Positions 8,759-53,019 of a stretch of 64,000 bases of DNA are shown here, one piece after another. The stretch comes from Candidatus Poribacteria bacterium (GTDB lineage: Bacteria > Poribacteria > WGA-4E > PCPOR2b), in the NCBI GenBank assembly GCA_965215015.1, contig OZ244042.1:2528001-2592000 (forward strand), in the 5' to 3' direction. The notes under the pieces are model-generated. The model searched no databases. It had not been told where the DNA came from and saw nothing but the letters and a program-made list of their open reading frames with translations. The position numbers and the translations under genes are program-made. The stretch's first letter is position 1, and every line of letters begins with the position of its first letter.

Positions 8759-8795
8759 AACCGTGCCAAAATTCGTTGGTACGGTTTTCGTTTTT
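8759..8795 (+). terminator. Intrinsic terminator-like hairpin just upstream of the ABC transporter RBS
   Basis: AACCGTGCCAA-AATTCG-TTGGTACGGTT followed by TTCGTTTTT. Confidence 0.55.
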
Positions 8796-8819
8796 GTGCT
8801 CCAGCAAGGAGGTTTTCTT

Positions 8820-11186
8820 ATGCACAGTGGGGGATTTTCTAGACGGGACCTGCATCGAATGGCCCGCTCTGCCGGTAGAGGAAACACGACTAGGCGGCCC
8901 GATGTAGAAATGACAATTTTAGAGGAAGTTCCAACAGCACTCCAAGATCAGCTTGAACGTTTGCTAGATGGGGAAGAAGATATTAAAATTGCCGTCTCGA
9001 CTGACCTACAGTTTAACGGTACTTACGGGAAAGATTGGGTGTTAGCGACGGAAAAACGTCTACTCATTTTTAACCAAAACGGTGCACCCACACCCGAAGT
9101 CCAAAACATCGCGCTCGAAACCATTGACAAGATTGAAATACGAGAGCTGTATGGCAATAACTTCATGAAGGTACGAACGTCAGATGGCGCATTTGAAATT
9201 GCGCGCTACTCGAAGCGGTTCGCCCCCAAGTTTGCCGAAGCAACACCAGAAATTGAATCTTTAATTGATAAGGTCAAGCCGGAGGGGACAGACAAATCTA
9301 AGCGGCATCGGAAGTATGTCGATCCTGGAAAAAAGAAAATTCGATGTGAAACCTGTGGACGTCCGATCCCGCGGTGGTCTGATGTCTGTCCGAACTGCGT
9401 TGAAAAAGGGAAGCTAATCTTCCGCCTACTAAAATACGCACTCCCATTTTGGCGTGTTTCTGTGCCGGCACTACTGATCGTGCTAGTTATACGATTGGTA
9501 GACCTCTATCCCCCTATTCTAAGTAAGCAGCTTATTGATGACATCCTTGTTCCTGCAACATTGGCGATAACAGGAGGACAGCCAATTGAACCGGGCGCAT
9601 TTGGCCAACTTGTAACAATTGTGCTTTGGATGGTCGGAGCGCACGTTTTCACGGCAGTTTTCTCAGCAGTTCGAGGGTACATGATGACGTGGGTCGGTCA
9701 GCATATCACCCTGAGATTGCGGAATGATGCCTATCAGCATATGAGTATCCTCTCGCTCGATTTCTATGATGGTCGGGAGACGGGAAATCTGATGTCGCGT
9801 ATTACTCAGGATATAGGGCGGCTGCGAGACTTCATCGCTGAGGGATTACAGGATATCGTCGGCGATTCAATGACGCTAATCTATATGTGCATTATTATGT
9901 TTGTTATTAACTGGCAGCTGGCACTCTGGGTATTGCTTCCGATTCCCTTTATTGTTCTTTTTTCATTTTATTTTGGACACAAGATGCACAAGGTTTTCCA
10001 CGTCCTGTGGAAGCGTTACGCTGGGATTAGCACAATTTTGGCCAGTACGATTCCGGGAATACGGGTTGTTAAGGCGTTTACCCGTGAGAAATACGAAGTT
10101 GAGCGTTTTCAAGAACAGGCCCATCTGGTTTTTGCAGGGGAGATGAGTGCCGCCAAACTATGGACAACTTATCAGCCAATCATGACTTTCATGACCTATT
10201 GCGGAACCATTTTTATCTGGTTAATTGGAGGACGGCAGATTCTCAACGGAAGCTTAACGCTCGGTGAGCTCACGTTATTCATGATCTATATGACGCGGTT
10301 TTTGCAGCCCGTACGAACGCTTGCTCAGATGAACCGTCGATTCCTGAGGGCCGCGACTTCTGCCGAACGGGTCTTTGAAATCCTTGATACGCCTCCTAGT
10401 GTGGCAAGTCGTAAAGATGCTGTTGGCCTTCCGAATATGCGAGGGCAGGTTGAATTTCGTGATGTCTTTTTCTCTTACGATAGTGAGAAAAATGCTATCA
10501 ATGGCATCAGCTTTACCGTCGAGCCGGGAGAGATGATCGGGCTTGTCGGACATAGCGGTGCAGGCAAGAGCACCCTCATCAATTTAGTCACCCGATTCTA
10601 CGATCCCAACGACGGGGACATTCTCATCGACGGGCATGATAGCCGCGATATTGAACTCAAGTCTTTACGAGGACAAATTGGGGTAGTGTTGCAGGATCCA
10701 TTCCTGTTTGAAGGCACCGTCGCCGATAACATCGGCTATGGAAAGCCGGAGGCAACGCGTCAGGAAATTATCGCGGCGGCTAAAGCCGCAAACGCTCACG
10801 ACTTTATTGTTAAATTTCCCGATGGTTACGACACGATGGTCGGTGAAAGGGGGGTGCGCGTCTCTGGCGGAGAACGTCAGCGGATCTCCATCGCTCGCGC
10901 CATCCTTAAAAATCCGCGCATTCTCATCCTCGACGAAGCGACTTCGTCTGTTGATACGGAGACCGAGTCAAGAATCCAAGAGGCGTTGGGACGGTTGATT
11001 CAAGGACGGACGGTCTTCGCAATCGCACACCGCCTCTCGACACTTAAACATGCCAATCGTTTGGTCGTCCTCAAAGAGGGGCAAGTTGATGAGATTGGGA
11101 CACACGAAGAACTCATTGCCAAAGGTGGTACTTATGCCAACCTATGTGAAAAGCAGACAGAGCTCTCGAAGATTCGGGCGTGGTAG
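8820..11186 (+). CDS. Fused permease/ATPase ABC exporter with long N-terminal extension and Zn-ribbon
   Basis: GHSGAGKST, VSGGERQR, ILDEATSS, AHRLST; CETC...CPNC; AAGGAGG RBS before ATG 8820. Confidence 0.93.
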   Translation: MHSGGFSRRDLHRMARSAGRGNTTRRPDVEMTILEEVPTALQDQLERLLDGEEDIKIAVSTDLQFNGTYGKDWVLATEKRLLIFNQNGAPTPEVQNIALETIDKIEIRELYGNNFMKVRTSDGAFEIARYSKRFAPKFAEATPEIESLIDKVKPEGTDKSKRHRKYVDPGKKKIRCETCGRPIPRWSDVCPNCVEKGKLIFRLLKYALPFWRVSVPALLIVLVIRLVDLYPPILSKQLIDDILVPATLAITGGQPIEPGAFGQLVTIVLWMVGAHVFTAVFSAVRGYMMTWVGQHITLRLRNDAYQHMSILSLDFYDGRETGNLMSRITQDIGRLRDFIAEGLQDIVGDSMTLIYMCIIMFVINWQLALWVLLPIPFIVLFSFYFGHKMHKVFHVLWKRYAGISTILASTIPGIRVVKAFTREKYEVERFQEQAHLVFAGEMSAAKLWTTYQPIMTFMTYCGTIFIWLIGGRQILNGSLTLGELTLFMIYMTRFLQPVRTLAQMNRRFLRAATSAERVFEILDTPPSVASRKDAVGLPNMRGQVEFRDVFFSYDSEKNAINGISFTVEPGEMIGLVGHSGAGKSTLINLVTRFYDPNDGDILIDGHDSRDIELKSLRGQIGVVLQDPFLFEGTVADNIGYGKPEATRQEIIAAAKAANAHDFIVKFPDGYDTMVGERGVRVSGGERQRISIARAILKNPRILILDEATSSVDTETESRIQEALGRLIQGRTVFAIAHRLSTLKHANRLVVLKEGQVDEIGTHEELIAKGGTYANLCEKQTELSKIRAW

Positions 11187-11220
11187 AAATGAAGTGTGAA
11201 AGGAGAAAGGAGTAGATACA

Positions 11221-11730
11221 GTGGAACAACCCATTCGGATTGAAGATGAGGTCCAATTTCTTGATTCCAAACGCTTGAAAATTAGTCGCAATCAGTTTGC
11301 AGAGATGGAAGCAGAACTACCAGATGGTTCAGTTCACGCGCCTGTTGAGCCGGTGCGCACGTTTCCACTGACCCAACCGGATCAATATATCAGTTTACTC
11401 GACGCCCACAAAAACGAGCTTGGCTTAATTGAAGACATAAATCAGTTGCAAAAAGCGGATCGGACGGTCCTCGCGGAAGAGTTGGAAAAATGTTACTTTG
11501 TGCCGCAGATTACGAAGATTCACGCCCTTGAGGGGCGGTTCGGTGTCACCCAGTGGGAAGTTGAAACCGGCAGCGGTGCCGTTTCTTTTGATCTACGCTC
11601 TCGACATGACATCACCTCACTCAGTGGCGGACGGGTGCTGATTAGGGATATTGATGGAAATCGTTACGAGATTGTCAACTATCATCAGCTAGATCCAAAG
11701 AGCATAGCCCTCCTTGAAACACAGATTTGA
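11221..11730 (+). CDS. DUF1854 domain protein
   Basis: PVRTFPLT..ISL, EELEKCYFVPQI, WEVET, DIDGNRYEI; usual position after this ABC type. Confidence 0.85.
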   Translation: MEQPIRIEDEVQFLDSKRLKISRNQFAEMEAELPDGSVHAPVEPVRTFPLTQPDQYISLLDAHKNELGLIEDINQLQKADRTVLAEELEKCYFVPQITKIHALEGRFGVTQWEVETGSGAVSFDLRSRHDITSLSGGRVLIRDIDGNRYEIVNYHQLDPKSIALLETQI

Positions 11731-16236: not shown

Positions 16237-16531
16237 GATCCATCCTCCTATTCAGATGTACGTTAAAATCAAATGGTAATTCACCGTCGAGGAATAAGAA
16301 TTTAATCGCTCGTACATTTCAACCAATCCCTTCTCACAATTTACCCCCTTACAAGGATGCTTCCCTTTTTCAAGATGAAATCGGAGAGTTAGAAGGATTG
16401 AATGACTGAGATTGAATTACCAATCCCTAAATAACCCCCTGTGCCCATTTTTCTTCAAAGTATCTTCATCTTCAGAGGGTTGTCGAATCGAAATGTTCAC
16501 GGTAAGGAAAATTTTGTTTTCTTTGTCGTGA

Positions 16532-16560
16532 ATTATACCACACAAATATGAAGTGGTCAA
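16532..16560 (-). promoter_or_regulatory. Near-consensus sigma70 promoter, ~290 nt upstream of the HEAT gene
   Basis: TTGACC-17-TATAAT with TG extension. Confidence 0.7.
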
Positions 16561-16628
16561 GTTAAAATTACGAATCTGTGGGAAAACAAACCTTCCCATC
16601 AAGATTGATAATTGTGATATAATATCAA

Positions 16629-16730
16629 GGGCGTGGTGTTGTTGGGACGGTAGGAGGCGTAGCTGGTCGGAGGGAAGAGCGGACTATCCTTCCCTCCTTC
16701 CGGCGGTTTCTGCTTGGAGGGATTCTCGCC
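16629..16730 (+). ncRNA. Candidate orphan structured RNA
   Basis: Extended -10 TGATATAAT at 16615-16623; long GU-containing hairpin; no credible plus-strand gene downstream. Confidence 0.35.
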
Positions 16731-16767
16731 AAACTTCTGTATTGTGGCAGCGAATAATAAAACCTTT

Positions 16768-17086
16768 GCTCATGTAAAGAAATCGTATAACAGCAATCGT
16801 CGGTGCTTGAATCTCCCGACTCGTCGAGGATTCTCGGCGTTTCTAAGTCCTGATGGGACTTGAAACGTCAGAACCGATTTATCGGGGGCGGGGTTTCCTC
16901 GTCCGAATATTTCGGGGGGTGGGCAGACTAGCGGGACAACCTCCCGATAGGATCGGGATTTAAATTGCTTTGAATCCTCAATGCTTCATCGGGGGCAACT
17001 TATGGTTGCCCGTCTTTAGTCTTGTTCTTTTATTTTGGGAGATTCAGTTAATTCGCGGCTGCTTTGCACTTTCTTTTTTTCTGCCC
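16768..17086. repeat. Composite cluster of REP-like hairpins between degenerate MITE-type ends
   Basis: GCTCATGTAAAGAAATCGT...TTTGCACTTTCTTTT enclosing GGGGCGGGGTTTCCTCGTCC, TCCCGATAGGATCGGGA, GGGCAACTTATGGTTGCCC. Confidence 0.5.
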
Positions 17087-17093
17087 TAAAATC

Positions 17094-18158
17094 TTATTCA
17101 TAAACAGTCGTTTCAGGATGGTAGCGCGCCCAAGCAAACCAGTAGATATTTATCGCCGGTAATCGTTCTAGCGTGTATCCTTTGAGTTTGCCTTCCGCTG
17201 CCATCCCTGTGATAAGGTTCCACGTTGTCCCCGTTGTGGCGTCTTTAACAAAGTAACCCCGCGCTGGGTTAAACCTCAATGTTTGCCCTTCCACAGCGCG
17301 GAGAAAAACAGCGGTCGCATTCGACTCCAAATCATGGAAAGCTAACACCGGCACGTCGCCCACTTTGTCGTTGATAATGGATTGCTTCTTAAAAGCTGTA
17401 AAGGGATAAGCTCGATAGCTTTCATTAATGTGGACGCCAACAACTAGTGCTTTATTCATCAAGCGGTTATCGATATACTGTGTGCCGCTGATACCTGCGT
17501 TGGAACTGGCATGATACGCGGCGTAGTTATTGGTTCTTATATCTTGAATTTGTCTCTCCGGGCGACGAAAATCATTGGGCACAGAGAGCACTTTTGTCAA
17601 TGGATGGTTACGTTTCCAATCCTTCCATGTGATTCGCGGTGTACCGGCTAACATCTTTAACTGTTTCCCCTTGAGTACACCTTGCACTGCTTCACCGGTG
17701 ATATGCGACCAGAGGGTCCGGGTTTGGTGGTCATACATAAGTAGTGCATCGCGAAAGAGTTTGCCGGATACACCAAACGTGTAGATTTTTCCATCAAGTT
17801 CACGACTATACACGATAGCCGTCTTGCAGAGCGGTCACCAAGTCGTCGCAATTTTGAGGCCGCCGATCTCATCGTTGACGATTTCGTGTCCGTTAAGTAG
17901 ATTGATTGAATAGGCGCGGCTTTCGCCGTTGAAATTAACGCCGATGACCGGTGAGTCAGCCGCCAATTTCGCTTTGTCGGCAGAGACAAATTCAGGATTT
18001 AGGATTGCGGGAATCGCATCATAAGGTAGGACTGTTAAGATACGGTCATCTGAATAATCTCTTGCCGATGCTATCGCATTAACCTCTCCCGAATATCGGG
18101 CACAACCGAACGGTATGAACGCTGCTGTTATCAACAGGAGGATTAGATTTTTTTTCAT
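17094..18158 (-). CDS. DUF3179 family selenoprotein (lipoprotein), Sec at TGA 17835-17837
   Basis: Track ORFs 17835-18158 and 17094-17813 are one frame: HEIVND...ATTW-TGA-PLCKTAIVY...FGVSGKL...YDHQTRTLWS...YWFAW; 354 aa on read-through; PFGC lipobox. Confidence 0.9.
17802..17822 (-). promoter_or_regulatory. Bacterial SECIS-like hairpin
   Basis: 12 nt after UGA: stem ACGGCUAU/AUAGUCGU, loop CGUGU. Confidence 0.7.
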
Positions 18159-18324
18159 TTTTTTCCCTTTATAATTTTAGCTGTAGGTACACTTTCTGAT
18201 AACATTCTTAAAAGAGATGGGAAGGATTTTAAATTATTGTGTTCAGAAAAGTATACCATATCGCTAGCAAGTATTCGTAATTTAACTCACGAATTGTTTA
18301 AATTCTACCCGGAGGTACAGCGTT

Positions 18325-20545: not shown

Positions 20546-21884
20546 TTCATTTACCCCCATTTTTTTTTGGTTATAGATTTGAGATATTTTTATGATTTAG
20601 GATAGTGAGAATACCTGTCATTAAGGGTGTTTGCATGTATCTCCCCTGCACAGTGGGAGTGTGAACCATGGATTGAGACACCACCCGCTCCACGCCTCAG
20701 CCACCACTCGCTTTATCACGGTAATGAGTGAGTATATTTTAGTCCGTGTGTTGAATGTTTTTGCCCATCGATCGCCTGACTTTTGATAGGTGATAAACAG
20801 TAAGCCATAACTGATACAAGCTAAGAGCCATAACAGGTTGATGCGGGCTTTTGACGGTTTTTTGAGTCTCAAGCTGCCAAAGCCAAAACCGGTCTTGATG
20901 TCCCGAAAGCCGTGTTCAATCTGCATTCTTCGCTTATAATAGTGGTATATTTGACGCCCCGTCAGATGACTTGAAATCAGATACATCGGTTCAGCCAACC
21001 GCGCCTCTCTGACGACATACAGGTTGAGTCGAATCGGCTCGGTTAAGTGATAGAGAATCTGTGGATAGAACCCCGTTTCCTGCAACTGTTCTGCCTTTTT
21101 AACAGTGCCCCAGACGGTCATGCGCGCGTTACGACACACGCGGATGATAAACGGAATCCGTTGTGTCTTGAGAAACTTTATCACATATTTAGCACGCGCG
21201 AAGCCTCTATCGAATATCAACGTGGCTTCACACGGGGGCGGTAAAATCGCTTCTGTCTTTTGATACAGTGTGAGACAAAAGCGTTGGATAATCTCATTAT
21301 GGCTGGTATAGGTCAACTGTTGAATCTCAGCATCGGTGTAGAGGTGCCAGTAGATAGGAACCGCCCGGCGGCGGAACGGCACCGCGGCAACAATCGCTTT
21401 GAAATGGCCAAACACCTGGGTTTCATCCACTAAAATCAACCGGCGTCCGGCGTGACGTTCACAGACCCGGCGGAGCACAAAGCCCAACCAGCACCCCATC
21501 ACCGCGTCAATAGGAAAGCGACGAGCTAAGAATCGAAGCAGGCGTTTCTGTTTCGTCTTTTGATGTTTGACGGCTACTGGCAAGCGTAAAGCAATTTCGT
21601 TTATCCGAAACTTCTGGGCCAACACAATGGCTAGGATCGTGAGTATCAGGTTTTTTAACGCCGGTTTTTTCAATACGGGGTTGAAAATCTCGGTCAGAGT
21701 GGTTATCATAGAACTGGGATTCACCCGCTTATGGCGGTGGGTGCCTTTCATAATACCTCCTTGTTTAAAACAATGGTTATTTTATACAGGGAGGTATTTT
21801 ACCATATTTGATAACCCTTTCTCACATCTAGACCTCGCAAAAACAACCAACATTACAACTCTAAAAAAAATGGGGGTAAGTGAG
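20546..21884 (-). mobile_element. IS4-family insertion sequence
   Basis: TIRs TCATTTACCCCCATTTTTTTT / AAAAAAAATGGGGGTAAGTGA around one transposase; no clear TSD. Confidence 0.85.
20621..21751 (-). CDS. IS4-family DDE transposase
   Basis: LVDET, FDRGF, YKRRMQIEHGFRDIK (YREK motif). Confidence 0.92.
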   Translation of the reverse strand: MKGTHRHKRVNPSSMITTLTEIFNPVLKKPALKNLILTILAIVLAQKFRINEIALRLPVAVKHQKTKQKRLLRFLARRFPIDAVMGCWLGFVLRRVCERHAGRRLILVDETQVFGHFKAIVAAVPFRRRAVPIYWHLYTDAEIQQLTYTSHNEIIQRFCLTLYQKTEAILPPPCEATLIFDRGFARAKYVIKFLKTQRIPFIIRVCRNARMTVWGTVKKAEQLQETGFYPQILYHLTEPIRLNLYVVREARLAEPMYLISSHLTGRQIYHYYKRRMQIEHGFRDIKTGFGFGSLRLKKPSKARINLLWLLACISYGLLFITYQKSGDRWAKTFNTRTKIYSLITVIKRVVAEAWSGWCLNPWFTLPLCRGDTCKHP

Positions 21885-22197: not shown

Positions 22198-24636
22198 ATG
22201 GCGACAGAAAATTTAGTACCTTTTAACGCGGAGGCAATAGATCCAGATGATGCCCGTGCAATTGAAATTTATGAGATGCAGCTGGATCGTGTCCAAGCGG
22301 GTCAGATGCCGGAGGAGATTTTCCTCGAATTTAGACTGCGTCACGGTGTTTACGGGCAGCGCGATGAAGGTTCACAAATGATTCGCGTAAAGATTCCATT
22401 CGGCGGTCTAAACGCGGCACAACTGGAAATGTTGGCTGATGTTGCCGAAGAATTTTCGGATAATATCATTCATATCACGACTCGCCAAGATGTGCAGTAT
22501 CACTATGTGGATATTAACAATACGCCGGAGTTAATGCGTCGGTTGGCGTCAGTTGACATAACAACCAAGGAAGCGTGTGGTAATGTGGTTCGGAATGTCA
22601 CCGCTTGCCCGCTTTCTGGCGTGTGTAACGATGAACCGTTTGATGTAACGTCTCACTCCAAGGCACTGTCCGCCTTCCTGTTGGGTCATCAGGATGCACA
22701 AGATTTCGGACGTAAGTTCAAGATCGCGTTTTCCGGCTGCCATGAACATGCTTGCGGCTTAGGATACATGCACGATATCGGTGCAGTTGCGGTGATTAAA
22801 GAGATTGACGGCAAACCGAAGCGTGGATTTAAGTTGCTCGTCGGTGGTGGGCTTGGTGCTGTGCCACATCAGGCAAAAGTTTTTGATGAGTTTGTGCCTG
22901 AGGAGGAATTGTTGCCAATTTCACAGGCGATCTCGAAGGTATTCACCCGTCTCGGGGAACGTAAAAATCGCAATAAGGCGCGGATGAAGTTTGTCGTGGC
23001 AAAACTTGGTATTGAAGAATTTCGTCGCCTTGTGTTGGAAGAGCGTGAACAGTTACGCCATGACCCCGCGTGGACAGCTCATCTCGGCAATCTTGATGTG
23101 TATGACGAAACACCACTGAAGCCACCGACGCAGCTCAATGGCGCGTCAAAACCGGAAGGGTTTGATCCGTGGCATGCCTCAAACGTGCGTCCACAACGAC
23201 AGCCGGGATACGCAGTCGTCAATATCACGTTGCCGCTCGGAGACATCACCGCGGATCAAGCCCGGGCGTTGGCAGATATTTCGCGCAATTATGTGAAGGA
23301 CACCATTCGCACGACCGTTGAGCAGAATCTCGTTTTGCGTTGGGTCAGCATGAGCGATCTACCTGCGCTTTACCAGGAGCTCAAAGAAATAGGCTTGGGC
23401 GCATCGGGTGCTGAGAGTACTGTTGATATTACAGCATGTCCCGGCACCGATTCCTGCAAACTGGGTATCTCATCTTCTCGTGGGTTAGCTGCTTACTTGA
23501 GGAATTACTTCATCGAGACCGGTGTGAAGGAGGAGATTCAAGATCTGCGAATCAAGATCAGCGGTTGCCCCAATTCATGCGGTCAGCACCACATCGCAAA
23601 TATCGGGTTCTTTGGCTCATCACGACGTATGGGTAAACATATCGCCCCATATTATCAAGTCATGTTGGGGGGGCACGCTACCGAGAATGCGGGGGCTTAT
23701 GGACTTGCCGCCGGAAAGATTCACGGCAAGAACATCCCACAATTCATCGAGCACTTGACCGGACGATACCTTGAGGAACGGCAAGAGGACGAACCATTCA
23801 CCGATTATATTGCGAGACTTGGCAAGGTTAAGATTAAGGCAATCCTCCGCGAGTATGATAAGATCCCTACCTTCGAGGAAGATCCCAGCTACTATATCGA
23901 CACCGGCGACACGAAGGAATTTCAACTCAAGACGGGTGTTGGTGAATGTGCAGGGCAGTTGGTAGAGTTGGTATCGTTCATACTTGAGGAAGCGGATCGG
24001 CTAATCTATGAGTCGGGGGTTGATCTGGAGAATGATGAATATGTGGATTCGGCTCAACACGCTTATGAAGCGATGATCAAAGCCGCGGACGCATTGCTGA
24101 CGACCGAAGGGCTGCAACACATTGACGACGAGACGACGGTTCGAGAGTTCCGAAGTCGGTTCTTTGAGCCGGGCATTGTTTTCCCCGGTTTTGGAGCGCA
24201 TCTGTTCAAGGCGGTCGAGGAGGATTCCAGTACCTTTGATAGGGAGCTAACGCACCGCCGCGTCGAGGAAGCGACTCTCTTTGTTGAGGAAGCACATAAC
24301 GTCTACGGGCGGATGCGGATTCGACAGGAGGAGGAATCGAGCACTAAGAAGCGCGAAGCTAGACCGGCACGTATCCCCAAGGCACCGCCGAAAGCAGAGA
24401 AGGTCGAGGAGATTGTTGACAGTCTTGACCTCAAGGGTGTGGCGTGTCCGTTCAACTACGTGCAAGCCAAAATTCGCTTGGAGACGATGAATGTCGGTCA
24501 GCTGCTGGAAATCACGATTGACGATGGCGAACCGATTGAAAATGTCCCTAAGAGCCTCACGAATGATGGGCATAAGATTACTGATACCAAGAAGATTGGT
24601 CAGCACTATCGACTCGTGATTCGTAAAGGTGAATAA
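22198..24636 (+). CDS. Siroheme/4Fe-4S sulfite (or nitrite) reductase fused to a helical domain and C-terminal TusA domain
   Basis: GVYGQR, HITTRQ, RKFKIAFSGC, ACPGTDSC...ISGCPNSCGQH; C-terminal LDLKGVACPFNY. Confidence 0.9.
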   Translation: MATENLVPFNAEAIDPDDARAIEIYEMQLDRVQAGQMPEEIFLEFRLRHGVYGQRDEGSQMIRVKIPFGGLNAAQLEMLADVAEEFSDNIIHITTRQDVQYHYVDINNTPELMRRLASVDITTKEACGNVVRNVTACPLSGVCNDEPFDVTSHSKALSAFLLGHQDAQDFGRKFKIAFSGCHEHACGLGYMHDIGAVAVIKEIDGKPKRGFKLLVGGGLGAVPHQAKVFDEFVPEEELLPISQAISKVFTRLGERKNRNKARMKFVVAKLGIEEFRRLVLEEREQLRHDPAWTAHLGNLDVYDETPLKPPTQLNGASKPEGFDPWHASNVRPQRQPGYAVVNITLPLGDITADQARALADISRNYVKDTIRTTVEQNLVLRWVSMSDLPALYQELKEIGLGASGAESTVDITACPGTDSCKLGISSSRGLAAYLRNYFIETGVKEEIQDLRIKISGCPNSCGQHHIANIGFFGSSRRMGKHIAPYYQVMLGGHATENAGAYGLAAGKIHGKNIPQFIEHLTGRYLEERQEDEPFTDYIARLGKVKIKAILREYDKIPTFEEDPSYYIDTGDTKEFQLKTGVGECAGQLVELVSFILEEADRLIYESGVDLENDEYVDSAQHAYEAMIKAADALLTTEGLQHIDDETTVREFRSRFFEPGIVFPGFGAHLFKAVEEDSSTFDRELTHRRVEEATLFVEEAHNVYGRMRIRQEEESSTKKREARPARIPKAPPKAEKVEEIVDSLDLKGVACPFNYVQAKIRLETMNVGQLLEITIDDGEPIENVPKSLTNDGHKITDTKKIGQHYRLVIRKGE

Positions 24637-26214: not shown

Positions 26215-27268
26215 ATGACACTTAATGAACACCTTGATGACATACACCACGATTTAACAAGAGGGGTATTTGCAAATGAGGCATCAGTTTCTCAGGGAAT
26301 CATACTTAGGTTACTCGGTGCACTGGGTTGGCCAAAGTATGATACGCAGGTTATCGTTCCTGAATATTCAGTTGAGGGTAGAAGGGTAGATTATGCTCTG
26401 TGCCACCCGCTGTCAAAGCCTCTAGTTTTCATTGAAGTCAAACAGGTTGGCCAAATTGAAGGGGCAGAGAGACAATTATTTGAATACGCTTTTCACACAG
26501 GGGTTCCAATCGCTGTCCTCACTGATGGTCGGGAATGGCACTTTTTTCAACCGGGTGGCCAAGGAGATTACGGAGAACGTCGGGTATGTAAACTGGATCT
26601 GATCGAAACAGACAATGAGGAGATTTTGAAACGTCTTAACCGATACTTGAAATACGAGTCGATACGCACCGGTGAAGCCATTACGGCAATCGAAAACGAC
26701 TATCGGAATATCTCCAAGCAGAGACAGATTGAGAGCAGTTTGCCAGAGGCATGGACTGAATTGGTGGAGGAGGCAGATGAACTTTTGATAGATGGAGTAG
26801 CGGAGAGAACGGAAAGTCTGTGTGGGCATAAACCAACTAGCGAGCAAGTGTTAGCTTTCCTGAAAAGTCTAAATGGGGATAGATCAACCCAGGGAGCCCC
26901 TTCTCCACCAACAGACTCCGGGGATAGGCCCCCCCTCGAGAAAAACCCCTTCTCCACCAACAAACCCCTCGGGTAGAAAGCTACCGACAAACCTTATCGT
27001 AACTATGCCTAATGGAGAAGAGATTGCTCATAATAGCGCAAAGAAAACCTTTGTTGAGGTAATTGAAAGGCTAGGAATAGAGAGGGTGAGAAGTGTTTAT
27101 CCTGATCTCTTCTCTACCTCATCAATTAAATATGGATATCAGGTTGGTCAGTATTATACAAAAGAGAGAGACACAGTGAACAAGAAGCGAATCCTTGAAC
27201 ATATTGCCGCCCGGCTTGGTGTAGGGTTGGAAATAGAGATACGCCTCAAAGGCGCCTCAAAGGATTGA
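26215..27268 (+). pseudogene. HsdR_N-type PD-(D/E)xK nuclease, copy 1, +1 frameshift at a C7 run
   Basis: Near-identical to 27775-28824; stops at 26976; C-terminal domain continues in the 26873-27268 frame. Confidence 0.85.
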
Positions 27269-27774: not shown

Positions 27775-28824
27775 ATGACACTCAATCAACACCTTGATGA
27801 CATACACCACGATTTAACAAGAGGGGTATTTGCAAATGAGGCATCAGTTTCTCAGGGAATCATACTTAGGTTACTCGGTGCACTGGGTTGGCCAAAGTAT
27901 GATACGCAGGTTATCGTTCCTGAATATTCAGTTGAGGGTAGAAGGGTAGATTATGCTCTGTGCCACCCGCCGTCAAAGCCTCTAGTTTTCATTGAAGTCA
28001 AACAGGTTGGCCAAATTGAAGGGGCAGAGAGACAATTATTTGAATACGCTTTTCACACAGGGGTTCCAATCGCTGTCCTCACTGATGGTCGGGAATGGCA
28101 CTTTTTTCAACCGGGTGGCCAAGGAGATTACGGAGAACGTCGGGTATGTAAACTGGATCTGATCGAAACAGACAATGAGGAGATTTTGAAACGTCTTAAC
28201 CGATACTTGAAATACGAGTCGATACGCACCGGTGAAGCCATTACGGCAATCGAAAACGACTATCGGAATATCTCCAAGCAGAGACAGATTGAGAGAAGTT
28301 TGCCAGAGGCATGGACTAAATTGGTGGAGGACGCAGATGAATTTTTGATAGATGTAGTAGCGAAGATAACGGAAAGTCTGTGTGGGCATAAACCAACTAG
28401 CGAGCAAGTATTAGCTTTCCTGAAAAGCCTAAATAGGGATAGACCAACCCAGGGAGCCCCTTCTCCACCAACAGGCTCCGAGGATAGGCCACCCCCGAAA
28501 AAGGATCCTTCTCCACCAACAGACTCCTCGGGTAGAAAGCCATCGACAAACCTTATCGTAACTATGCCCAATAGAGAAAGGATTGCTCATCATAGCGCAA
28601 GGAAAACCTTTACTGAGGTAATTGAAAGGCTAGGAATAGATAGAGTGAGAAGTGTTTATCCTGATCTCTTCTCTACCTCGAAATTACCTTATAGCCATCG
28701 GGTTGGTCAGTATTATATAAAAGATGTGGCAGGCACAAGGACCAGAAAGCGAACCCTTGAACGTATTGCCGCCCGGCTTGGTGTAGAGTTGGAAATAGAG
28801 ATACGCCTCAAAGGATTGAATTAA
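27775..28824 (+). CDS. Stand-alone HsdR N-terminal-type restriction nuclease with Pro-rich linker and C-terminal domain, copy 2
   Basis: VPEY..RVDYAL..FIEVK, QLFEYAF, LTDGREW; PSPPT linker repeats. Confidence 0.85.
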   Translation: MTLNQHLDDIHHDLTRGVFANEASVSQGIILRLLGALGWPKYDTQVIVPEYSVEGRRVDYALCHPPSKPLVFIEVKQVGQIEGAERQLFEYAFHTGVPIAVLTDGREWHFFQPGGQGDYGERRVCKLDLIETDNEEILKRLNRYLKYESIRTGEAITAIENDYRNISKQRQIERSLPEAWTKLVEDADEFLIDVVAKITESLCGHKPTSEQVLAFLKSLNRDRPTQGAPSPPTGSEDRPPPKKDPSPPTDSSGRKPSTNLIVTMPNRERIAHHSARKTFTEVIERLGIDRVRSVYPDLFSTSKLPYSHRVGQYYIKDVAGTRTRKRTLERIAARLGVELEIEIRLKGLN

Positions 28825-29712: not shown

Positions 29713-30519
29713 ATGTACAATTTTAGTAATGAACAAATTGAGCGATATAGTCGACACATCATCCTCAAAGAGGTTGGGGGGATGGGGCAAACCAAGCTGC
29801 TTGAATCGAAGGTACTTCTCATCGGTGCAGGCGGGCTTGGATCACCTGCGGGGTTGTATCTAGCCGCAGCTGGTGTTGGAACGCTCGGAATCGTCGACGA
29901 CGATGTTGTAGATATGAGCAATCTCCAACGACAGGTTCTTCACGGAACGAGTGATGTGGGCAAACTGAAAACAGAGTCCGCAAAGGAAACGCTCGCAGAC
30001 ATCAATCCTGATGTTACAGTTATCACACATACTGAGAAGATTGTTTCGGCAAATGCTTTTGAAATCCTTGAGGATTACGACCTCATTGTTGATGGGTGTG
30101 ATAATTTACCGACCCGCTATCTGTTGAATGATGCCAGTGTGATGCTCGGCAAACCGATTGTGCATGGCAGCATCTTCCAGTTTGAAGGGCAGGTCACTGT
30201 GTTTCATCCCGGCGGGGGACCGTGCTACCGCTGCCTCTACCCGTCACCTCCGCCACCTGATATGGTGCCAAGTTGTCAAGAAGCGGGTGTGATTGGTGTG
30301 TTACCGGGCATTGTCGGGAATGTGCAAGCCGTTGAAGCCATCAAAGTTCTACTTGACATTGGGAAGCCGCTAATCGGTCAACTGCTTCTATTCAACGCTT
30401 TATCGATGGAGTTTAAGAAACTCACGCTTCGTCAAGACCCTGGATGTCCCGCCTGTGGTAAAAACCCAACGATTCACGAATTGATTGACTATGAAGAGTT
30501 TTGTCAAGTGCGTTGGTAA
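29713..30519 (+). CDS. moeB: MoeB/ThiF family adenylyltransferase without rhodanese domain
   Basis: RYSRHI, GAGGLG, SNLQRQ, CYRC, PSCQEAG, CPAC. Confidence 0.9.
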   Translation: MYNFSNEQIERYSRHIILKEVGGMGQTKLLESKVLLIGAGGLGSPAGLYLAAAGVGTLGIVDDDVVDMSNLQRQVLHGTSDVGKLKTESAKETLADINPDVTVITHTEKIVSANAFEILEDYDLIVDGCDNLPTRYLLNDASVMLGKPIVHGSIFQFEGQVTVFHPGGGPCYRCLYPSPPPPDMVPSCQEAGVIGVLPGIVGNVQAVEAIKVLLDIGKPLIGQLLLFNALSMEFKKLTLRQDPGCPACGKNPTIHELIDYEEFCQVRW

Positions 30520-51771: not shown

Positions 51772-53019
51772 ATGAGCTATCCAACCGAACAACTAATAGC
51801 ACAAGAAACAGATCACAGCTTTGATGTCAACGTTTATACCCGCCTCGGCGTCAAGCCATTTATTAATGCTAATCTCCCTTTCACGTTTTTGAGCGCGACG
51901 GTGGTATGGCCGGAGGTGCGCCGAGCGATTGACGAGGCAGCGCATTATATGGTTGATGTAGTTGAACTGCAGCGGGGGGTGGGCAGGCGTCTTTCAGAGA
52001 TTTCAGGGGCAGAGTCCGGTATGATCTCCTCCGGAGCCGCCGGATCGATGGCACTTGCGACAGCAGCATGTATCGCAGGCACCGACCCAGAGAAAATTTG
52101 GCAACTCCCCGACACCACGGGTCTCAAAGATCAGGTTATCATGTGGGGCGGGCGAAGTATTTTCGACAGTGCATTGCGGCTGGTTGGGGGCAAACCGATA
52201 GTGGTTAGTTCGCTGGAGGTGCTGCGCCGTTCTATTAACGATAAGACTGCCATGCTCTGCACAGGATACTCCGCTGATCCAGACCCGGTGGCCCCACCAC
52301 CTTTGGCAGAAATGGTGTCGATTTGCAAGCCTTTGGGTGTCCCTGTATTCGTTGACGCAGCGGGTGGTATCCCGCCCATTGACAACCTCCGAAGATATGC
52401 CCGTATGGGCGTAGATTTGTATGGGTTTAGCGGAGGCAAGGGCTTACGGGGACCTCAAGCGAGTGGACTATTGCTTGGGCGGCAGGACCTGATTGAGGCG
52501 GCACTTGCCAATGCGGCGCCAGTTGAGGGGGCCGTATGCCGCGCCATGAAGGTCGGCAAGGAGGAAATTATCGGTTGCATGGCAGCCCTTGAAAAGTGGT
52601 TGACCATCGACCTTGATGCCTTGTATTGTGAACAGACGGAGATGTTGCAGAGAATCGCAATGTTCGTAGAGTCCGTCCCCGGTGTTGAAACTCAAATTGA
52701 AGTCCGTACCGGCAGTAACCGCTTTATGCAACTAGTTGTGCACTGGGACGAAGAGGCTTTTGGGCTCACTGTGGACGAGTGTGGACGCGAGTTGCGAGAA
52801 GGTGCCCCGTCTATATCGGTGCTGTGTAGTTACAACCCCTACGTAACGCGAGTTCGCGAATTCTACCCTCCAGCCGCTGTTGATGAGAAACCTATCAAGC
52901 GTCAGGGCAGCCCGCTAACGGTTTTTTCCCTTAGTCTTCAACCCGGCGAGGAACAAATTGTTGGAACCCGGCTTCGCGATGTTTTGAGGGCGGCACTTAA
53001 TAGGACTTTGTCATATTAA
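51772..53019 (+). CDS. SelA-like/DgaE-like PLP-dependent enzyme
   Basis: LGVKPFINA, VDAA, FSGGKGLRGPQASG, RAMKVGKEEI. Confidence 0.85.
   Translation: MSYPTEQLIAQETDHSFDVNVYTRLGVKPFINANLPFTFLSATVVWPEVRRAIDEAAHYMVDVVELQRGVGRRLSEISGAESGMISSGAAGSMALATAACIAGTDPEKIWQLPDTTGLKDQVIMWGGRSIFDSALRLVGGKPIVVSSLEVLRRSINDKTAMLCTGYSADPDPVAPPPLAEMVSICKPLGVPVFVDAAGGIPPIDNLRRYARMGVDLYGFSGGKGLRGPQASGLLLGRQDLIEAALANAAPVEGAVCRAMKVGKEEIIGCMAALEKWLTIDLDALYCEQTEMLQRIAMFVESVPGVETQIEVRTGSNRFMQLVVHWDEEAFGLTVDECGRELREGAPSISVLCSYNPYVTRVREFYPPAAVDEKPIKRQGSPLTVFSLSLQPGEEQIVGTRLRDVLRAALNRTLSY

Follow-up and report, generated by a model that had tools for sequence, protein, structure and literature searches.

A gene split by an in-frame UGA

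The window analysed here, a 64-kb stretch of DNA from Candidatus Poribacteria, a bacterium of the sponge-symbiont type, carries on its minus strand, from 18158 to 17094, a single open frame of 354 codons whose sole interruption is a TGA (17837-17835; codon 108) in the context TGG TGA CCG CTC TGC (W-U-P-L-C), and which closes with TAA (Table 1). The initial annotation, which gave no strand, had taken the two ORFs called here to be one frame broken by TGA alone, and translation of the window bears this out. ORF calling with translation table 11 splits the gene into products of 107 aa (18158-17835) and 239 aa (17813-17094), the latter from a GTG start. That standard gene callers would do so had been anticipated, and the same split runs through the databases: 110 of the 120 best protein matches are the post-UGA fragment, beginning at the GTG that lies within the SECIS loop described below. 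No RBS-like site precedes this GTG in the sequence context inspected.

The gene stands alone in the window. It diverges from an NHL-repeat gene, and some 860 bp separate it from a HEAT-repeat gene downstream. The 860-bp intergenic stretch (16237-17093) contains small hairpins at 16662-16704, 16942-16958 and 16993-17011, which are partly kept (75-80%) in close relatives and match nothing in Rfam. The scan that produced the promoter-like match in Table 1 returned 7 matches in the region, against a mean of 3.7 (sd 1.9) in shuffles.

Table 1. Features of the putative DUF3179 selenoprotein gene. Coordinates are those of the window.
Feature	Coordinates	Strand	Basis
Full DUF3179 selenoprotein CDS (predicted), 354 aa, Sec at codon 108, TAA end	17094..18158	-	frame, Pfam match
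Signal peptide (predicted), residues 1-19, with imperfect lipobox I-P-F-G-C19 at its end	18102..18158	-	sequence
Repeat 1, residues 68-185, predicted Rieske-like fold without cluster ligands; H91-E92 and U108-P-L-C111	17604..17957	-	duplication, model, structure comparison
His91-Glu92, conserved in 101/105 and 98/105 rows, absent from repeat 2	17883..17888	-	family alignment, model
In-frame UGA, predicted to be read as Sec108, first position of UxxC	17835..17837	-	codon context, 80/80 loci, alignment
Cys111 codon TGC, second and probably resolving Cys	17826..17828	-	TGC/TGT in 81 copies
bSECIS upper stem-loop, 8 bp, loop CGUGU at 17814-17810; lower stem may reach 17830/17790	17802..17822	-	folding, covariation, synonymous sites
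Repeat 2, residues 236-348, predicted Rieske-like, no Cys, conserved W-F-A-W at end	17115..17453	-	duplication, model, structure comparison
RBS-like purine-rich AAAGGG 5' of ATG	18165..18170	-	sequence context
Weak sigma-70-like promoter match, 9/12; not evidence of function	18174..18202	-	motif scan

Conservation of the UGA at a family cysteine position

The read-through protein matches Pfam family PF11376 (DUF3179) at 283 bits, against a gathering cut-off of 27, over profile positions 2-292 of 292; its two halves occupy positions 2-64 and 66-292. The family is a large one, with 10,272 representatives at E <= 0.001, and NCBIfam holds no family for the protein.

A scan of GTDB genomes yielded 574 confirmed stretches, of which the best 80 (the L-numbered loci) are the closest relatives and have no bearing on Cys use in more distant GTDB members. 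By their titles, 74 of these best 80 are Ca. Poribacteria, two are 'uncultured bacterium', and one each is Latescibacterota, Entotheonella, Ardenticatenaceae and Chloroflexota; the nearest loci belong to Poribacteria MAGs with at most 95% identity (L011, on chromosome OY282444.1) and with neighbours in common. TGA stands at codon 108 in all 80 (best 80 of 574; 43-95% identity), with frames open on both sides and no further internal stop. TGC or TGT lies three codons past the UGA in all 81 copies (the window and the best 80 of 574), and P109-L110-C111, between the apparent stop and the apparent start, is invariant in the loci compared (best 80 of 574). In a 123-row family alignment, 100 of the 106 rows that cover position 108 have Cys there (rows such as P0035 and P0053 may be Sec entries written as C); five plasmid-borne homologues carry a TGC or TGT codon at this position. 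The proposal that the UGA sits at the first Cys of the family's CPLC motif is thus upheld.

TGA is an ordinary stop in this DNA, 12 of 43 long window ORFs terminating in it, so UGA108 appears to be a case of site-specific recoding and not of global reassignment. An alternative genetic code, with TGA read as Trp or Gly, is ruled out by these ORFs together with the alignment of the site to Cys.

A SECIS hairpin downstream of the UGA

The bSECIS model given in the Fig. 2 legend of PMC13188914 has a loop of 3-9 nt, a stem of 4-16 bp, a G in the first two loop positions, a spacing of 16-37 nt and an MFE <= -7.5. The 60 nt that follow from the UGA fold into a hairpin in agreement with this model, with an 8-bp stem, a loop CGUGU that starts 20 nt after the UGA and an MFE of -12.2 kcal/mol; the falsely called GTG start (17813) falls in its loop. 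Stability alone is uninformative, with a z of -0.8 and 39 of 200 shuffles folding as well. A screen of our own implementation, built on the Fig. 2 consensus of PMC13188914, is passed by 78 of the 81 DUF3179 copies (window and best 80 of 574), L003, L025 and L067 failing, against a background, counted over window and loci, of 532 passes among 6227 in-frame TGA sites, the 78 included. The 7-bp core pairs in 99% of cells over 72 distinct rows, compared with 15-44% in slid controls, and compensatory changes on both sides occur at 2 pairs, both from two Chloroflexota loci (two sequences); the shuffle test of this covariation is inflated by the relatedness of the rows. The firmest evidence comes from the synonymous sites, whose variation falls below 0.1 of expectation only at codons 114-117 (231 scored, median 0.80), which is exactly the hairpin. 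Taken together, the pass rate, the pairing with its two compensated pairs and the frozen synonymous sites place the hairpin beyond chance, and the bacterial SECIS that the initial annotation had recognised by its 8-bp stem, GU-containing loop and 20-nt distance from the UGA stands on these grounds.

Selenocysteine machinery

The 64-kb window contains no selA, selB, selC or selD and no Rfam match, and neither the window nor the 80 loci (best 80 of 574) contain a tRNA, tRNA-Sec included. A SelA-like ORF at 51772-53019 (+) was considered as SelA and rejected, scoring 154 bits with the DgaE family and 27 bits with SelA (cut-off 268); a SelA-related PLP enzyme of this kind may be mistaken for SelA when Sec genes are sought. 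At the level of the phylum there is support from a Poribacteria MAG, GCA_016866825.1, for which a supplementary row of PMC13582414 records SelA, SelB, SelD and two tRNA-Sec. Considering frame, conservation and hairpin, we hold it highly probable that the mis-split gene encodes one UGA-recoded selenoprotein, with Sec predicted at position 108.

The Poribacteria MAG locus L061 has two tandem genes for HMA-domain lipoproteins (L061:19520-19903 and L061:20060-20443, both +), each with an in-frame TGA in the motif G-M-T-U-x-x-C and a SECIS-like hairpin. They are candidates for further Sec lipoproteins and lend indirect support of the same phylum-level kind.

Export and lipid anchoring

Residues 1-19 have the basic N-region and the hydrophobic stretch before Cys19 that characterise a lipoprotein signal. 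Against the lipobox consensus, a pattern of the PROSITE type, the window sequence departs at -3, where it has Pro (CCG) and the nearest relatives keeping the Cys mostly have Leu (CTG; 9/12). Among the best 80 of 574 loci the pattern is matched in 10 of the 12 nearest, L012 having Tyr for Cys, and in 32 of the 80 overall, a few of them (L061, for example) probably spuriously; many of the 48 loci without a lipobox end in A-x-A instead. In the window copy an A-S-A near residue 32 could be an alternative signal peptidase I site. A hydrophobic N-terminus is present in every DUF3179 copy inspected and a lipobox in only part of the loci, which makes export general and lipid anchoring optional. That the DUF3179 selenoprotein is exported is accordingly very likely from its sequence, and a lipid anchor at Cys19 of the window copy has about an even chance. 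Of the 'exported lipoprotein' in the initial annotation, the export is retained, with its signal before Cys19, and the anchor becomes a lineage-variable trait, given the Pro at -3 here and the 48 of 80 loci (best 80 of 574) in which the lipobox is missing. The same annotation had called an extracytoplasmic Sec redox protein unusual, which needs softening: besides the two candidates in L061, the table of PMC13188914 lists DsbA-like, DsbG-like, TlpA-family, multiheme cytochrome and outer-membrane selenoprotein families.

Predicted fold and candidate active site

Neither the protein nor its 123-row profile matches any solved structure by sequence at E <= 10. The protein is internally duplicated, its repeats being 31% identical (E 2e-17; profile-profile probability 99.9%), and its structure model has a pLDDT of 93 and a pTM of 0.88. 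When the whole model was compared with 48,161 chains, the top 44 of 50 rows were Rieske domains, the best with Z 9.4, rmsd 2.9 and 93 aligned residues in repeat 2; for repeat 1 folded alone the top 45 of 50 were, the best with Z 8.4, rmsd 3.1 and 92 aligned, unrelated rows reaching Z <= 3.3. No thioredoxin- or Msr-fold chain appears among the best 50 rows for either, an absence that does not exclude such a relation. Foldseek agrees on the Rieske ranking, with probability up to 1.0, but gives no match at E <= 0.001, and profile-profile comparison of DUF3179 with Rieske ferredoxins and NirD is not significant (probability 0.75%). Modest as the fold scores are, the model is one of two tandem Rieske-fold domains without 2Fe-2S ligands: the C-x-H and C-x-x-H cluster ligands are absent, U108 and C111 are the only Sec or Cys residues of the mature protein, and repeat 2 has no Cys.

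In the model the UxxC motif lies in a turn between strands 101-108 and 113-118 (pLDDT 98), not at the helix N-terminus of a thioredoxin fold. In the non-significant profile register, which fits the structural ranges, it corresponds to HcaC residues 30-33 and not to ligands 42/44/62/65. His91-Glu92 would adjoin U108, judging by the strand register from DSSP. Cys is kept at the first motif position in 100 of 106 rows and at the second in 86 of 106; of the 100 rows with the first Cys, 15 have Ala, Thr, Ser, Asp or Val at the second position. Unequal conservation of this kind is typical of thiol oxidoreductases, where one Cys is catalytic and the other resolving. The first is missing (Ser or Asp) in 6 of 106 rows, Ser accounting for 5, which means that some members either are inactive or manage without this Cys.

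Proteins with Ser or Asp instead of the catalytic Cys are P0143, P0157, P0162, P0196, P0126 and P0269; they are possibly inactive or non-redox. The C-terminal half is longer in many Poribacteria copies (L056, L058-L063, L065, L066, L068-L074, L076-L078) and also in P0093, P0095, P0098, P0105 and P0113; in the aligned proteins the lengthening is a Gly-x-y insertion (collagen-like; PF01391 in P0093) inside repeat 2.

Fusions and genomic neighbourhood

An N-terminal AhpC-TSA/Redoxin domain of the TlpA/ResA-like, WCxxC type is found in 14 of 150 family representatives (by a domain scan of 44 long or atypical representatives and a motif count over all 150), and the same fusion in 3 of 3 long matches. 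P0392 has the order CcdA-ResA-DUF3179, its DsbD_TM score of 26.9 bits being just under the 27.1 cut-off. No TlpA fusion is seen in this Sec clade itself. This fusion of relatives to thioredoxin-type partners suggests a cell-envelope redox enzyme.

Plasmid neighbourhoods were inspected in 13 of 27 homologue-bearing records, picked by hand, 10 of the 13 being haloarchaeal and not independent. Thiol-redox or metal(loid)-resistance genes neighbour the homologue in 10 of the 13 (not H4, H19 or H25), a raw count without background control. In the Poribacteria loci (best 80 of 574) there is no conserved redox operon, and the neighbours follow clade-wise synteny. Seven of the 80 loci (best 80 of 574), namely L013-L017, L019 and L023, have a gene for an ArsS radical SAM protein (Cys form; 418 bits, cut-off 300) directly 3' of DUF3179 and in the same orientation; these seven form one Poribacteria clade. 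At L080:2806-4023 (-), in a Chloroflexota MAG, a fusion of glutaredoxin-like and thioredoxin reductase domains adjoins the Sec DUF3179 gene.

Elsewhere in the window, a nitrite/sulfite reductase fused to a C-terminal TusA domain (22198-24636, +) lies about 5 kb from a MoeB/ThiF gene (29713-30519, +), a possible sulfur-relay pathway. An ABC transporter and a DUF1854 protein are encoded at 8763-11730 (+), their orthologues in L012 scoring on NCBIfam 'cyanophycin metabolism-associated' models; two nearby genes (26215-26976 and 27775-28824, both +) have type I restriction HsdR N-terminal domains; and a DDE transposase (20621-21751, -) is inserted at a place where relatives have other genes.

Discussion

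DUF3179 UxxC/T already figures in PMC9312934 as a selenoprotein family by prediction, without experimental verification, and DUF3179 is again among the predicted selenoprotein families in Table 1 of PMC13188914, so the window gene is a new member and not a discovery; the match is to the same whole PF11376 domain, with the same UxxC/T motif. RefSeq plasmid records are already named 'DUF3179 domain-containing (seleno)protein', and a DUF3179 gene is named in a table of PMC9230427. The initial annotation was right that Sec forms were known and the function was not: the passages of PMC9312934 and PMC13188914 concerned give no fold, location or function, and what is described here is a Poribacteria clade split by gene callers. 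The passages of PMC1976440 that describe the Olavius selenoproteome do not name DUF3179, and the portion of the BSepDB supplement covered (PMC13326102) contains neither 'Poribacteria' nor 'DUF3179'. No paper pairing 'Rieske-like' with selenoprotein was found in a search outside which most subscription papers and structure classifications lay, and the fold assignment may exist elsewhere.

Each repeat of the model superposes on about 92 residues of Rieske-type ferredoxins (PDB 2qpz, 3gce, 1vm9) and of the NirD-like Rieske domain (PDB 3c0d), with Z 8.2-9.4 and rmsd 2.6-4.2. DUF3179 differs from these in its tandem duplication, in an identity of only ~10% and in lacking the C-x-H and C-x-x-H boxes. 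To our knowledge NirD-type domains are also without a cluster, which fits the NirD sequence examined. With the thioredoxin-fold UxxC selenoproteins (Trx, DsbA/DsbG-like, Prx-like) DUF3179 shares the UxxC and a likely catalytic/resolving logic, but its motif is placed in a strand-strand turn (E101-108, E113-118). Relays in which CcdA/DsbD passes electrons through TlpA/ResA to a terminal reductase include the Trx-MsrA-MsrB of Neisseria PilB and the CcdA-Etrx-MsrAB2 of the pneumococcus. The DUF3179 fusions resemble them in arrangement, a signal or anchor being followed by a TlpA-like domain and then by DUF3179, in one case with CcdA; unlike the Trx-Msr relays, DUF3179 matches neither the MsrA nor the MsrB family and has another predicted fold.

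We propose the following course of events. The monocistronic gene would be translated into a 354-aa selenoprotein, SelB acting on the GU-loop SECIS to insert Sec at UGA108, and without recoding, translation would end after 107 aa, in the middle of a domain. The signal peptide would export the protein, which might be lipid-anchored at Cys19 and would fold into two tandem Rieske-like beta domains without 2Fe-2S ligands, repeat 1 presenting U108-x-x-C111 on a beta-hairpin turn with the conserved His-Glu beside it. The Sec108 selenolate could then attack an oxidised substrate, with Cys111 resolving the product into a selenenylsulfide; electrons to re-reduce the Sec-Cys pair could come from membrane CcdA/DsbD by way of a thioredoxin of the TlpA/ResA type. 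By analogy with the Trx-Msr relays, a cell-envelope reductase dependent on a selenol or thiol, with TlpA and CcdA/DsbD as partners, is the account to which we lean by a little; as to its substrate, we would guess, with low confidence, at a peroxide or oxidised sulfur on envelope proteins as the most plausible.

Other readings of the UGA itself have little room. Of the 120 best database matches, 110 are the 239-aa piece, as they would be if the gene were a pseudogene, bore a sequencing error or made two proteins of 107 and 239 aa, but this is scarcely credible when the same TGA recurs in 80 of 80 independent assemblies (best 80 of 574), four further lineages included, when P109-L110-C111 is invariant and no RBS precedes the GTG, and when the break falls inside one domain. 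SECIS-dependent recoding of UGA by tRNA-ReC has been described (PMC13582414), and Cys works in most family members, so that UGA108 might be recoded to Cys by a tRNA of the tRNA-ReC/SelC* type, always or under selenium limitation; against this, GCA_016866825.1 has SelA, SelB, SelD and two tRNA-Sec, and all 80 copies (best 80 of 574) retain the UGA without reversion to TGC or TGT, which leaves this reading very improbable.

More weight attaches to what the site might do. U108, C111, H91 and E92 could form a site for a metal or metalloid (Cu, Hg, As(III)) in an envelope chaperone, sink or sensor, with TlpA merely keeping it reduced. The CPLCG of DUF3179 presumably resembles a metal-binding knuckle, neighbours of homologues include arsenite oxidase, an ArsC-like protein, heavy-metal ATPases and ChrA, ArsS lies 3' of the gene in 7 of the 80 loci (best 80 of 574), and L061 has its Sec HMA-domain candidates. 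We nevertheless think such a site unlikely: a two-thiol site would poorly tolerate the replacement of Cys111 seen in 15 of the 100 rows keeping the first Cys, the ArsS link is limited to one clade, and the radical SAM neighbours in haloarchaea are TrsS-like and not ArsS. A shade less likely again is a non-redox nucleophilic triad of Sec/Cys108, His91 and Glu92, serving a hydrolase or an acyl- or sulfur-transfer enzyme. Repeat 1 has His, Glu and Cys as its three conserved polar residues, Ser stands at 108 in 5 of 106 rows, and sulfur-handling DsrE and TauE genes are neighbours in several haloarchaeal loci; against a triad stand a second Cys retained in 86 of 106 rows, the repeated fusion to thioredoxin-like domains and the view that the majority of uncharacterised UxxC selenoproteins have redox roles (PMC13188914).

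The correction of the annotation is solid but routine: the selenoprotein family is a listed one, and 110 of the 120 closest database entries carry the wrong split. Of more value are the leads on a large family: a tandem Rieske-like, cluster-free fold, a candidate site of U108, C111, H91 and E92, and TlpA and CcdA as candidate donors. With a concrete fold, a candidate active site and candidate electron donors, the function of DUF3179 becomes directly testable. Tentatively, and at somewhat less than even probability, DUF3179 may represent an unrecognised class of envelope oxidoreductase, in which a Sec/Cys-His-Glu site on a duplicated cluster-free Rieske scaffold replaces the Fe-S cluster and draws electrons from CcdA-TlpA, its Sec form being widely exported by Poribacteria. 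If true, this would give selenoproteins a fold, and the DsbD/CcdA pathway a terminal branch, that the papers found do not describe. For the organisms themselves, the findings indicate a wide use of selenocysteine in Poribacteria, exported proteins included.
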